64,000 bases of DNA from Escherichia coli (GTDB lineage Bacteria > Pseudomonadota > Gammaproteobacteria > Enterobacterales > Enterobacteriaceae), in assembly GCF_041886205.1 (NCBI RefSeq), contig NZ_CP169029.1; one strand, written 5' to 3'. This document shows positions 45,001-51,000 of this stretch, piece after piece (position 1 is the first letter of the stretch; every line of letters begins with the position of its first letter). The position numbers were made by a program.

Positions 45001-48000
45001 CTGTATTTCATCGACCAGCCGCACCAGCACATCTGCCTGATTCGCCAGTTGTTTGCTTTCCGGGGCATTGAGTTTAGCCGCGCTCTCCGCCAGGGACTGT
45101 GCGGGTTCTTTCAGCGCATCGCCAATGTTTTTCATAAAGGTCATCCGCCCCTGCTGGTTTTTCTCATACAGACGCTGCGCCTGCTTGAGTTTCTTGTTTA
45201 CCAGCACTTCGCGATCCTGATCGCGAATAATGAAAATTTGTGTGCGCGGCGCGACCTGGCTGCGGAACATGCGGATCTCATACAGCTCGTTATTGATCGT
45301 CGCCTGAATAATCCCCTGATGCTGTTCCGCCATGGTGGTGATGTTTTGCAGATTCAAATGCGGCAGCAAATGATCGGCATTTTTGTTACTTATGACAGTG
45401 CGGTTCGATTCCTGATCGTGAACCAGCAGGCCGAGCGGCAGCAGTGAGACTATCTCTTCATTGATTGCCCGTAAAATGCGCAATTCGTTATTGACCGCCG
45501 TGTTGGGTAGACTTTCTGTACTGCGACTGGAGAAATGGCGGAATGTGGTATAGCCAAATAACGCCAGCGCCAGCAAACCGATGTTCAGCAGCAGTGGCAG
45601 CAGAATGTTTTGCAACGTATCCAGCAATAAGGTGCCATAAGGAACCTGCCAGACCAGGCGCATATCGGTAGAGTTGAGTGCCGAGGAGATTTCAATCTTC
45701 GTACTGTTAAAGTGGATACTGACGCTATCCGTTCCTTCTTTCTCATTATCATTGTCTCCCGTTGCCGTCGCGTCTGGCTCAAGGCGGAAACTGTCCAGCG
45801 GCATACCCGGTGGGATCAAATCATTAATCGGCAGATCAAAAGCCACGACCGTTGCCAGATGTCCTGGCTGGTTAAAGGTAGTACGCAATGTAAAGTAATG
45901 ACCGTTCTGCCAGGCCAGGCGGCGCATGTTAGAAAAGCTTTCGCGTTCATCGAGGGCGTTGGCCTGTTGCAACATCTCTGCACGACGTGAATCAACAATG
46001 TCGCTGACGGTCGATTCTTTAAATCCGGAGGTGAGATCTTTAAGGGGTAGGGTTGAGATCAGCACCAGACTGTTATCCTGACCATTCAGGTAATACATCG
46101 ACCACGGTACATTTTCTGCGCCCCACAATGTATCCAGATAAGTGGACATCCGCTGAGTCATCTCAAGCGTTGAGTTGTCGTGAGAGCCAAAGATTAACGC
46201 TTCCGTTTTGCGGCGTGGTTTCTCCAGATAGTAGACATCCTGTTTCAGGCGCGTCTCTTGTAAACCTTCGCCGGAGGAGGGGGAGGTCGTCGCGGCAATG
46301 TTGTCGTAGATCTGCCAGGTCACGTAACGCCAGTTATCGACGCGCTTTTGGATAGCATGGGTAATGTCGACAATCTGGTAACTTTTATCTTTCAGCCAGG
46401 CGTTAACGGCGCTTTGTACCATTACACCCATCGTCACCAGTAACACAATGATCAACAGTAAAAAGAAGCGGGTAATGCTCCCCGGTAGGAGTGAAAAGCG
46501 GGTCGTGGCCGTTGTCTCTTTCTGACGCATTCGTGTTTATGACCTGTTAAAACTTCGCGAAGTGATAGGGCAGTATAAAGGGTACAGTGTGAAATTCCAG
46601 ACTCTTACCTGATTGATGATTCTCTATTCTCCCGTGATATTTATCATCCTGCATTGGGGGAAATAGATGTACAAGCGCCATTTTGCTGTACAAATAACCT
46701 ACAAAAAGCCCAACGAAATTAATTGCAAATAAACGAAGATTGCTGGAAATTATGCTGATGTTAATTATTTGTGAAATAGTTAACAAGAGTTATAGTTTTT
46801 CTGTGGTAGCACAGAATAATGAAAGTGTGTAAAGAAGGGTAAAAAAAACCGGATGCGAGGCATCCGGTTGAAATAGGGGTAAACAGACATTCAGAAATGA
46901 ATGACGGTAATAAATAAAGTTAATGATGATAGCGGGAGATATTCTAGTTGCGAGTGAAGGTTTTGTTTTGACATTCAGTGCTGTCAAATACTTAAGAATA
47001 AGTTATTGATTTTAACCTTGAATTATTATTGCTTGATGTTAGGTGCTTATTTCGCCATTCCGCAATAATCTTAAAAAGTTCCCTTGCATTTACATTTTGA
47101 AACATCTATAGCGATAAATGAAACATCTTAAAAGTTTTAGTATCATATTCGTGTTGGATTATTCTGCATTTTTGGGGAGAATGGACTTGCCGACTGATTA
47201 ATGAGGGTTAATCAGTATGCAGTGGCATAAAAAAGCAAATAAAGGCATATAACAGAGGGTTAATAACATGAAAGTTAAAGTACTGTCCCTCCTGGTCCCA
47301 GCTCTGCTGGTAGCAGGCGCAGCAAACGCTGCTGAAGTTTACAACAAAGACGGCAACAAATTAGATCTGTACGGTAAAGTAGACGGCCTGCACTATTTCT
47401 CGGACGACAAGTCTGTAGATGGCGACCAGACCTACATGCGTCTTGGCTTCAAAGGTGAAACTCAGGTTACTGACCAGCTGACCGGTTACGGCCAGTGGGA
47501 ATATCAGATCCAGGGCAACGCTCCGGAAAGCGAAAACAACTCCTGGACCCGTGTGGCATTTGCTGGTCTTAAATTCCAGGACATCGGTTCTATCGACTAT
47601 GGTCGTAACTACGGCGTAGTTTACGACGTAACTTCCTGGACCGACGTACTGCCAGAATTCGGTGGCGACACTTACGGTTCTGACAACTTTATGCAGCAGC
47701 GTGGTAACGGCTTCGCGACCTACCGTAACACTGACTTCTTCGGTCTGGTTGATGGCCTGAACTTTGCTGTTCAGTACCAGGGCCAGAATGGCAGCGTAAG
47801 CGGTGAAAATGATCCGGATTTCACTGGTCATGGCATCACCAACAATGGTCGTAAAGCTCTGCGTCAGAACGGCGACGGCGTTGGCGGATCTATCACTTAT
47901 GATTACGAAGGCTTTGGTATCGGTGGTGCGATCTCCAGCTCCAAACGTACCTGGGATCAGAACAACACTGGTCTGATCGGTACTGGCGACCGTGCTGAAA

Positions 48001-51000
48001 CCTACACTGGTGGTCTGAAATACGACGCTAACAACATCTACCTGGCTGCTCAGTACACCCAGACCTACAACGCAACTCGCGTAGGTTCCCTGGGTTGGGC
48101 GAACAAAGCACAGAACTTCGAAGCTGTTGCTCAGTACCAGTTCGACTTCGGTCTGCGTCCGTCCCTGGCTTACCTGCAGTCTAAAGGTAAAAACCTGGGT
48201 GTCATCAATGGTCGTAACTACGACGACGAAGATATCCTGAAATATGTTGATGTTGGTGCGACCTACTACTTCAACAAAAACATGTCCACCTATGTTGACT
48301 ACAAAATCAACCTGCTGGACGACAACCAGTTCACTCGTGACGCTGGCATCAACACTGATAACATCGTAGCTCTGGGTCTGGTTTACCAGTTCTAATCTCG
48401 ATGGATATCGAACAAAGGGCCTGCGGGCCCTTTTTTCATTGTTTTCAGCGTACAAACACAGTTTTTTGGTGTACTCTTGCGACCGTTCGCATGAGGATAA
48501 TCACGTATGGAAATAAGCTTTACCCGCGTGGCACTGCTGGCTGCCGCGCTCTTCTTTGTTGGTTGCGATCAAAAACCACAACCCGCCAAAACCCACGCTA
48601 CTGAAGTTACCGTTCTTGAAGGCAAAACCATGGGTACCTTCTGGCGTGCCAGCATCCCGGGCATTGACGCCAAACGCAGTGCCGAACTTAAAGAAAAGAT
48701 TCAGACCCAGCTGGACGCCGACGATCAGCTGCTTTCGACCTATAAAAAAGATTCCGCGCTGATGCGCTTTAACGACTCGCAAAGTTTGTCGCCGTGGCCG
48801 GTAAGTGAAGCGATGGCCGATATCGTCACCACCTCGCTGCGCATTGGCGCGAAGACCGATGGTGCGATGGATATTACCGTCGGGCCGCTGGTGAATCTGT
48901 GGGGCTTTGGCCCGGAACAACAGCCGGTTCAAATTCCGAGCCAGGAACAGATCGATGCGATGAAAGCCAAAACCGGCTTACAGCACCTGACGGTCATTAA
49001 TCAGTCCCACCAGCAATATCTGCAAAAAGACCTGCCGGATTTATATGTCGATCTCTCCACCGTCGGTGAAGGTTATGCGGCGGATCACTTGGCTCGCTTG
49101 ATGGAGCAGGAAGGGATTTCCCGCTATCTGGTATCGGTGGGCGGCGCGCTGGACAGCCGTGGTATGAACGGTGAAGGCCAGCCGTGGCGGGTAGCGATTC
49201 AAAAACCAACCGATAAAGAAAACGCGGTTCAGGCCGTGGTGGATATCAACGGCCATGGGATTAGCACCTCTGGCAGCTACCGTAACTATTACGAACTGGA
49301 CGGCAAACGTCTTTCCCATGTTATCGATCCGCAAACCGGGCGTCCCATCGAACACAATCTGGTATCCGTGACGGTGATTGCCCCGACGGCGCTGGAAGCC
49401 GATGCCTGGGATACTGGCTTGATGGTACTCGGGCCGGAGAAAGCCAAAGAGGTTGTTCGCCGGGAAGGGCTGGCGGTCTACATGATCACCAAAGAAGGTG
49501 ATAGCTTTAAAACCTGGATGTCGCCGCAGTTTAAAAGTTTCCTGGTGAGCGAAAAAAATTAAAGCGCAAGATTGTTGGTTTTTGCGCGATGGTGACCGGG
49601 CAGACTAAAGGCTATCCTTAACCAGGGAGCTGATTATGAAAAACGCCACATGCTTAACTGACGATCAACGCTGGCAATCTGTCTTAGCCCGCGACCCGAA
49701 TGCCGACGGCGAATTCGTTTTCGCCGTGCGCACCACGGGTATCTTTTGCCGTCCGTCCTGCCGCGCCAGACATGCCTTGCGGGAAAATGTCTCCTTCTAC
49801 GCAAATGCCAGCGAGGCACTCGCCGCCGGATTTCGCCCCTGCAAACGCTGCCAACCTGATAAAGCCAATGCCCAGCAACATCGGTTGGATAAAATCACCC
49901 ACGCGTGTCGACTGCTGGAACAGGAAACGCCTGTAACGCTGGAAGCCTTAGCCGACCAGGTGGCGATGAGTCCGTTCCATCTGCATCGGTTGTTTAAAGC
50001 GACTACCGGAATGACGCCTAAAGCCTGGCAACAGGCCTGGCGCGCTCGCCGTTTGCGCGAATCGCTGGCGAAAGGGGAGAGCGTGACGACGTCTATTCTT
50101 AACGCCGGATTCCCCGACAGCAGCAGTTACTACCGCAAAGCTGACGAAACGCTGGGCATGACGGCTAAACAATTCCGTCACGGTGGCGAAAATCTGGCGG
50201 TGCGTTACGCGCTGGCTGATTGTGAGCTGGGTCGTTGCCTGGTGGCAGAAAGCGAGCGGGGGATTTGCGCGATATTGCTGGGCGATGATGACGCGACATT
50301 AATCAGCGAGTTGCAGCAGATGTTTCCCGCTGCCGACAACGCGCCTGCCGATCTGATGTTTCAGCAACATGTGCGTGAAGTGATCGCCAGCCTCAATCAA
50401 CGCGATACGCCGCTGACGTTACCGCTGGACATTCGCGGCACTGCTTTTCAGCAACAAGTCTGGCAGGCACTGCGCACGATACCTTGCGGTGAAACCGTCA
50501 GTTATCAGCAACTGGCTAACGCCATCGGCAAACCGAAAGCGGTACGGGCCGTTGCCAGCGCCTGTGCCGCCAACAAGCTGGCTATCGTAATACCCTGTCA
50601 TCGAGTGGTCCGTGGTGATGGCACACTTTCCGGTTACCGCTGGGGCGTGTCGCGTAAAGCGCAACTGCTGCGCCGCGAAGCTGAGAATGAGGAGAGGTAA
50701 TGTTGGATCTGTTTGCCGATGCTGAACCGTGGCAAGAGCCACTGGCGGCTGGTGCGGTAATTTTACGGCGTTTTGCTTTTAATGCTGCGGAGCAACTGAT
50801 CCGCGATATTAATGACGTTGCCAGCCAGTCGCCGTTTCGCCAGATGGTCACTCCCGGGGGATATACCATGTCGGTGGCGATGACCAACTGTGGGCATCTG
50901 GGCTGGACGACCCATCGGCAAGGTTATCTCTATTCGCCCATTGATCCGCAAACAAATAAACCGTGGCCCGCCATGCCACAAAGCTTTCATGATTTATGTC

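Follow-up and report, generated by a model that had tools for sequence, protein, structure and literature searches.

A 375-residue Escherichia coli OmpC, very probably a common natural allele with recombined surface loops

Described OmpC alleles and their ligands

The surface loops of the porin OmpC are known to vary among Escherichia coli strains, and particular loops have been linked to particular ligands. Sensitivity to CdiA-EC536, whose receptors are OmpC-OmpF heterotrimers, is decided by the types of loops L4 and L5 (Beck et al. 2016, PMC5056734). Permissive L4/L5 pairs are, for example, b1/a1 of EC536, c1/a1 of F11 and the pairs with a6 found in UTI89 or EC93. Alleles of CFT073 and A35H, both of which combine b1 with a11, conferred resistance to CDI-EC536 (PMC5056734). 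Loop L7 has been studied with phage PP01. A GVIN insertion in this loop is needed for adsorption of the phage and suffices when grafted into K-12 OmpC; the chimeras were built on K-12 or on the shorter O157 L4, and the sequence of L5 was less critical (PMC12892980). Loop-level phage data on OmpC are absent from a paper on the Gp38 adhesin (PMC12032242), which covers OmpA, OmpF, Tsx and, in passing, OmpC.

Here we describe ompC from a stretch of 64,000 nucleotides of an E. coli genome (contig NZ_CP169029.1), referred to as the window. MG1655 ompC (NC_000913.3 2311646-2312749, b2215; PDB 2J1N) served as the K-12 reference. An earlier note on this DNA had claimed that the gene encodes 375 aa as opposed to 367 aa for the K-12 protein. 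Both lengths hold: the open reading frame listing of the window contains one intact 375 aa frame starting with ATG at 47268-48395 (+), and translation of MG1655 ompC yields 367 aa, that is, 8 fewer.

The ompC locus

The gene and its surroundings comprise the following features.

43858..46530, reverse strand: rcsD (890 aa), upstream flank, which fixes synteny; 99.3% identity to K-12
46841..46934, reverse strand: micF small RNA gene (Rfam RF00033), divergent from ompC as in K-12
47268..48395, forward strand: ompC coding sequence, a single ATG open reading frame of 375 codons plus stop; protein WP_000865544.1
47268..47330, forward strand: signal peptide of 21 residues, matching K-12 exactly, with no difference from K-12 before residue 47
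48414..48441, forward strand: intrinsic terminator-like hairpin with T run, starting 19 nt past the ompC stop codon
48507..49562, forward strand: apbE/ftp (351 aa), downstream flank; 97.3% identity to K-12

Gene order rcsD-micF-ompC-apbE is common to the window and K-12. The micF gene was called with 116.8 bits (gathering score of the Rfam model 79) and has its terminator at 46869-46847. No differences from K-12 were found in the 250 bp preceding the ompC start codon (47000-47249), an indirect indication that expression may be osmoregulated through EnvZ/OmpR. The DNA is a 100% match to annotated ompC with protein WP_000865544.1, and its product scores 467.6 bits with Pfam PF00267 (Porin_1) and 756.5 bits with NCBIfam NF007841 "porin OmpC" (cut-off 484).

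Since megablast hits a median of two places per genome and paralogous porins share some DNA similarity, the frame might in principle belong to a paralogous or prophage-borne porin of 375 aa (OmpF, PhoE, OmpN or NmpC/Lc) and not to ompC. This has a negligible probability. The gene occupies the ompC position between micF/rcsD and apbE, and 345 of 367 aligned residues are the same as in K-12 OmpC. Furthermore, the OmpC profile exceeds its cut-off, whereas the sister-porin profiles stay under theirs (OmpF 475.5 bits with cut-off 583, PhoE 450.9 with cut-off 599). A paralogous porin was thus rejected on the basis of K-12 ompC synteny and NCBIfam profile scores. The gene is almost certainly the chromosomal ompC of an E. 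coli strain in which the flanks of the gene resemble those of K-12.

Mature protein begins with AEVYNK, as solved mature chains align to query residues 22-375. Its C-terminus (...VYQF), with the terminal aromatic residue, is the same as in K-12. Gapless identity to 2XE1_A at 345 of 354 positions suggests that the product would adopt the 16-strand barrel fold.

Loop differences and prevalence of the allele

In a global alignment of the window protein with K-12 OmpC, 345 positions are identical and 22 are substituted; the 8 gap columns are all in K-12. The eight added residues form two in-frame blocks of 4 residues (12 nt), one in L4 and the other in L7. Loop boundaries were taken from the crystal-structure-based map of Beck et al. 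(2016, S1 Fig, PMC5056734), and the loops that bear on the comparison are as follows.

47400..47420, forward strand: L1 (SDDKSVD), 2 substitutions relative to K-12, N47D and D49S (precursor numbering)
47511..47540, forward strand: L2, 10 residues, 3 substitutions relative to K-12
47610..47687, forward strand: L3 constriction loop carrying the PEFGG motif, unchanged relative to K-12, as is everything between precursor residues 110 and 172
47784..47864, forward strand: L4, type b1, 4 residues longer than K-12 and with 8 substitutions
47946..47990, forward strand: L5, type a11, 15 residues, K-12 length, 7 substitutions
48192..48230, forward strand: L7, type e, 4 residues longer than K-12 and with one G to N substitution

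As aligned, the inserted residues of L4 are 182-184 and 188 (nt 47811-47819 and 47829-47831), where K-12 reads GEG---FT-SG. The L7 insertion is GVIN, residues 311-314 (nt 48198-48209), where K-12 reads NLG----RGY. K-12 OmpC has L4 of type a1 and L7 of type a, each 4 residues shorter than its counterpart here, which accounts for 375 versus 367 residues. The earlier note had attributed the length difference to loop insertions, and this is borne out, since both blocks map to the extracellular loops L4 and L7; the pairwise alignment that it had proposed finds neither the length nor the sequence identical to K-12 OmpC.

Substitutions are distributed in a similar manner. Twenty of 22 fall into L1, L2, L4, L5 and L7. 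The remaining two are conservative changes in strand beta6, V85I and F88I (mature numbering). No residue differs from K-12 in the signal peptide, the L3 constriction loop, L6 or L8. Likeness to MG1655 OmpC extends to the locus, its regulation elements and the barrel.

This distribution bears on whether the main effect of the allele might concern pore permeability and antibiotic uptake instead of surface recognition. Structures of natural and clinical OmpC variants have been determined in work on drug resistance (2XE1-2XE5 and 2XG6 are among the matches), access to the pore might in principle be influenced by long loops at its mouth, and V85I with F88I are located in a barrel strand. However, L3 and all remaining barrel residues are the same as in K-12, and the varied residues reside in outward-facing loops with published roles in ligand recognition. 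We thus consider an effect mainly on permeability unlikely; judged from the residues involved, channel properties should be essentially unchanged relative to K-12.

The extra residues could also be an artefact, caused either by a start codon called too far upstream or by a sequencing or assembly error. The former does not apply, because the N-terminus, including the start codon, equals K-12 through residue 46, and the differences are internal, in-frame blocks of 12 nt. A sequencing error is excluded, as an independent complete genome carries this DNA at 100% identity and DNA at least 99% identical to the window ompC is present in 67 of 5431 records. The exact protein, WP_000865544.1, is found on at least 1000 public contigs. 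Moreover, the solved structure 2XE1 has an equal mature length of 354 residues. An artefact of either kind, which the K-12-identical start, the copies in independent genomes and the contig count rule out, has practically no chance of being correct.

The L4, L5 and L7 types of the allele have been catalogued. Its exact L4 string is type b1 (UPEC536/CFT073 type), L5 is a11 (CFT073 type) and L7 is e in S2 Table of Beck et al. (2016, PMC5056734), and the b1/a11/e combination itself is entry 86 in S1 Table of the same work. L4 is the same as in solved structure 2XE1, and L7 the same as in solved 9WCB_A. These matches bear on the idea that the insertions are new events specific to this strain, such as local duplications, in which case the gene would be a new OmpC variant shaped by recent selection. 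The allele is indeed a minority one, considering the 67 records mentioned above. Nevertheless, its L4, L5 and L7 types and their combination were known in 2016, WP_000865544.1 belongs to the earliest RefSeq non-redundant OmpC accessions, and the allele has been found in unrelated hosts and countries. Given the catalogue matches, new strain-specific insertions were rejected as hardly credible.

OmpC length classes from around 363 up to 376 aa are frequent (length tally over 39 rows), so any implication in the earlier note that 375 aa is an unusual length is not supported. We conclude with high confidence that the window ompC is a common, previously catalogued natural allele. The finding is correct but ordinary, since the extra residues lie in loops known to vary among strains; earlier work had already described the modular nature of the loops, their types and the exact protein, and nothing here is new.

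Among described alleles, A35H from a uropathogenic isolate (PMC5056734) has a mature OmpC of 354 residues, and its L1-L7, including b1/a11/e, are all the same as in the window allele. It differs at five residues: two in beta6 (DVGSFDYGRN in A35H), one in beta14 (RPSVAY versus RPSLAY here), one in L8 (TRAAG versus TRDAG here) and one just past L8 (DIVALGL versus NIVALGL here). CFT073 OmpC (WP_000865543.1; 2XE1) has the same lengths, 375 aa for the precursor and 354 aa for the mature protein, and is the gapless match at 345 of 354 positions mentioned above. It shares L1, L2, L4 and L5 with the window allele. Its L7, on the contrary, is of type c (VVAG) and not of type e (VING), and beta6, beta10, beta14 and L8 also differ. 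OmpC of O157:H7/EC869 (WP_000865552.1; sequence type of 9WCB_A) displays the opposite pattern, matching the window allele fully from around residue 240 up to the C-terminus, L7 GVIN included. Its L4 belongs to the short type c2 and has 8 residues fewer than L4 of the window allele, its L5 is of type a6 and its total length is 367 aa.

Mosaic structure and surface recognition

The ompC gene is 91.8% identical to K-12, in comparison with 97.3-99.3% for flanking genes and intergenic regions. Sites that discriminate between reference alleles point to a junction within the gene.

48042..48157, forward strand: interval of a putative intragenic recombination junction, H299/CFT073-like on the left and O157/EC869-like on the right

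Out of 88 informative sites, 71 of 73 to the left of this interval are of H299 type and 14 of 15 to its right are of O157 type (Fisher p = 2.7e-13; reached by 0 of 2000 label permutations). Parental types were chosen among four reference alleles only, so the true donors may differ. CFT073 DNA is unlike the window ompC in the 3' quarter, which is O157-like here. On this pattern the ompC DNA is a recombinant, H299/CFT073-like in its 5' three-quarters and O157-like in its 3' quarter.

Divergence within the gene is uneven. Synonymous divergence from K-12 (dS) is approximately 5-fold higher in the variable loops (0.53) than in the remainder of the gene (0.10). Such a dS indicates that the loop segments are old and not recently mutated, which also speaks against new insertions. 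Pairwise dN/dS in the variable loops is 0.46, roughly 13-fold above the rest of the gene; being below 1, this comparison with K-12 alone does not demonstrate positive selection.

The allele very probably arose by homologous recombination, which reassorted old, divergent loop segments within ompC. The resulting gene is H299/CFT073-like through L5 and O157-like from L7 onward, and the extra loop residues represent pre-existing types, with no new insertions in this strain. As a whole, the data are in all likelihood best explained by an ordinary general-diffusion porin, a common natural allele with recombined surface loops. The locus may serve as a clean textbook case of intragenic reassortment of surface-loop cassettes between nearly clonal flanks.

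Given its loops, the protein is expected to present a surface different from that of K-12 OmpC toward ligands that read the variable loops. Sequence typing reveals b1 together with a11 and thus none of the L4/L5 pairs permissive for CdiA-EC536. Because of this pair, by analogy with the resistant alleles, the window OmpC is predicted to be a poor CdiA-EC536 receptor.

The L7 GVIN determinant of PP01 gp38 is present, residues 309-318 being the same as in the O157 type. The earlier note had also proposed that loop changes may alter phage susceptibility, and the published link between L7 GVIN and PP01 adsorption (PMC12892980) lends support to this; its remarks on colicin susceptibility and serotype-like properties are not supported here. 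The type of ompC allele helps to predict which OmpC-dependent phages (T4-like, PP01-like) and CDI systems target a strain. This may be of use in phage host-range prediction and in matching for phage therapy, with little significance beyond strain description.

A more speculative reading, which we regard as possible but rather doubtful, is that the loop combination, in which recombination has linked long L4 and L5 of the CFT073 type to the GVIN motif of an O157-type L7 between K-12-like flanks, constitutes an unmeasured receptor profile. A strain with this allele would be open to O157-directed, PP01-like T-even phages via L7 and, via L4/L5, would escape CdiA-EC536 and perhaps K-12-adapted OmpC phages. 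If true, the novelty would lie in the phenotype of a known allele and not in a new kind of system, and "O157-specific" phages would have an unrecognised commensal host reservoir.

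Length and locus of ompC

The ompC gene is located at 47268..48395 on the plus strand, where the ORF listing of the window contains a single such reading frame with an ATG start, 375 codons and a stop, in full agreement with the earlier note. For comparison, the K-12 MG1655 locus (b2215) was translated. Its 1104 nt encode 367 aa, so the 8-residue difference is real. When the two proteins are aligned globally, 345 positions are identical and 22 substituted, and each of the 8 gap columns is an insertion on the side of the window protein. Four extra residues lie within an 11-residue stretch aligned with K-12 GEG---FT-SG and four within a 10-residue stretch aligned with NLG----RGY. 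A start-codon artefact as the source of extra length was ruled out, because residues 1-46, including the 21-residue signal peptide, are the same as in K-12.

The window protein scores 756.5 bits with the NCBIfam model NF007841 "porin OmpC" (cut-off 484) and falls under the cut-offs of both OmpF and PhoE profiles; the Pfam Porin_1 match spans its whole mature length. On the basis of established family knowledge and near-identity to solved OmpC structures, it is a general-diffusion porin. The gene occupies the same chromosomal position as K-12 ompC, and the 250 bp 5' of its start codon display no differences from K-12. Its neighbourhood is as follows.

43858-46530, minus strand: rcsD, divergent from ompC, as in K-12
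46841-46934, minus strand: micF (Rfam RF00033, 116.8 bits), divergent from ompC
48414-48433: terminator-like hairpin after the ompC stop codon
48507-49562, plus strand: apbE/ftp, downstream of ompC, as in K-12

Antisense to ompC, a TTG-initiated ORF of 364 codons (47361-48455, minus strand) spans almost the entire gene; this frame is mechanical, and no evidence marks it as a gene.

Length variation of ompC is ordinary. Among 39 full-length matches, sampled in even steps down a ranking of 5,431 records, aligned spans fall into nine length classes (approximately 363-376 aa): 1104 nt (18), 1095 (5), 1128 (4), 1092 (3), 1122 (3), 1131 (2), 1125 (2), 1107 (1) and 1119 (1). Some 1128-nt alleles are only 91-92% identical to the window allele; 375 aa is thus reached via more than one loop combination.

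Loop differences and mosaic structure

Differences from K-12 were placed with the crystal-structure-based assignment of loops and strands in S1 Fig of Beck et al. (PMC5056734). Length and sequence are not identical to K-12, and both 4-residue insertions map to extracellular loops, L4 and L7, which bears out the proposal that the length difference stems from loop insertions. Loops also harbour 20 of the 22 substitutions (L1 2, L2 3, L4 8, L5 7, L7 1). Outside the loops there are just V85I and F88I (mature numbering; ompC residues 106 and 109, window 47520-47600), both conservative and located in barrel strand beta6. None of the 12 alleles in the alignment of Beck et al. has Ile88, nor does the structure 2XE1; the exact protein is nonetheless widespread. 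Since the constriction loop L3, L6, L8 and all strands except beta6 are identical with K-12, the pore should be unaltered, with the outer surface being what differs.

We also compared the gene with its surroundings. The window is 99.98% identical to strain wlxctx60 across 36.7 kb. Relative to K-12, ompC is 91.8% identical, whereas flanking genes and intergenic regions reach 97.3-99.3%, and excess differences are limited to about 47,400-48,250, within the coding region. For rcsD, K-12 is the nearer of the two references (99.3%, against 98.4% for CFT073), whereas for the 5' part of ompC it is CFT073, indicating that the history of the gene differs from that of its flanks.

Comparison with four reference alleles in 60-nt bins revealed a mosaic. 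From its start to about 48,040, ompC hardly differs from the H299-type allele of strain MDR_56, and from 48,158 onward it hardly differs from the O157 allele; the CFT073 allele is close in L1, L2, L4 and L5. At 88 sites that tell the H299 and O157 types apart, 71/73 left of the junction agree with H299 and 14/15 to the right with O157 (Fisher p = 2.7e-13, a value reached by 0/2000 permutations). Synonymous divergence from K-12 is 0.53 in variable loops, compared with 0.10 in the rest of the gene; the non-synonymous values are 0.24 and 0.004, respectively. Together, the mosaic, the contrast with the flanks and these divergence values show that the loop segments are old divergent cassettes shuffled by recombination, not recent mutations. 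Modularity of OmpC loops has been described previously (PMC5056734).

Known loop types and surface recognition

Beck et al. assigned types to L4, L5 and L7 across 2,707 E. coli OmpC proteins (PMC5056734). The window allele exactly matches type b1 in L4 (UPEC 536 and CFT073), a11 in L5 (CFT073) and e in L7 (EC869/O157), a combination present as entry 86 of their S1 Table. OmpC of A35H, a uropathogenic isolate tested by the same authors, shares L1-L7 and the 354-residue mature length but differs at 5 residues. Both long loops exist in solved structures: 2XE1, CFT073 OmpC according to Beck et al. (PMC5056734), aligns without gaps (345/354 identity) and has an identical L4, and chain 9WCB_A has an identical L7. 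The exact protein is found on at least 1000 public contigs, named "MULTISPECIES: porin OmpC" (WP_000865544.1 in a 100%-matching complete genome), and DNA at least 99% identical to the allele in 67 records, whose sources are pigs, cattle, humans, wildlife and water. The window ompC is an ordinary case of well-known polymorphism; allele, loop types, their combination, structures and functional relevance are all on record and not new.

The functional meaning of the allele is surface recognition. The receptor of CdiA-EC536 is formed by OmpC-OmpF heterotrimers, with recognition determinants in OmpC L4 and L5 (PMC5056734). Since CFT073 and A35H alleles, both carrying b1 and a11, conferred resistance to CDI-EC536 (PMC5056734), the window allele is predicted to be protective as well. 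Gp38 of phage PP01 contacts L5 and L7 of O157 OmpC, L5 sequence being less critical; deletion of GVIN from L7 abolishes adsorption, and its placement into K-12 L7 suffices for full plating (PMC12892980). L7 of the window allele has the same GVIN insertion as O157, so the key PP01 determinant is present; its L4, 8 residues longer than in O157, may interfere. These published L4/L5 and L7 determinants support the earlier suggestion that the loop insertions may affect phage or toxin recognition.

Other features of the window

The window lacks atoSCDAEB, the acetoacetate/short-chain fatty acid operon, between rcsC and yfaP: at 39868-40062, only about 195 bp separate K-12-homologous blocks in place of 7.4 kb in K-12. 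The operon is also missing from wlxctx60 and present in CFT073. Neither K-12 nor CFT073 has an equivalent of the 3.96-kb segment between glpQ and inaA (13795-17753), which contains the following.

14015-15121, minus strand: 368-aa ORF, no match in Pfam search
15551-16429, minus strand: LysR-family regulator
16581-17771, plus strand: MFS transporter

Among 5,426 complete E. coli genomes, 710 carry the full segment and 4,366 carry remnants; K-12 retains a 256-bp remnant overlapping its yfaH pseudogene.

The gyrA gene (27814-30441) is intact, with wild-type Ser83 and Asp87 as quinolone-resistance-determining residues. Homology to L002 5655-10169 places the alpha-2-macroglobulin gene yfaS, a pseudogene in K-12, at about 32900-37440; in the 99.98%-identical genome it is annotated as a single intact 4.5-kb CDS. 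Further, the convergent rcsC-rcsB intergenic region carries, at 42991-43181, a tandem pair of Rfam naRNA4 matches (62.9 and 66 bits; REP-derived CssrE).
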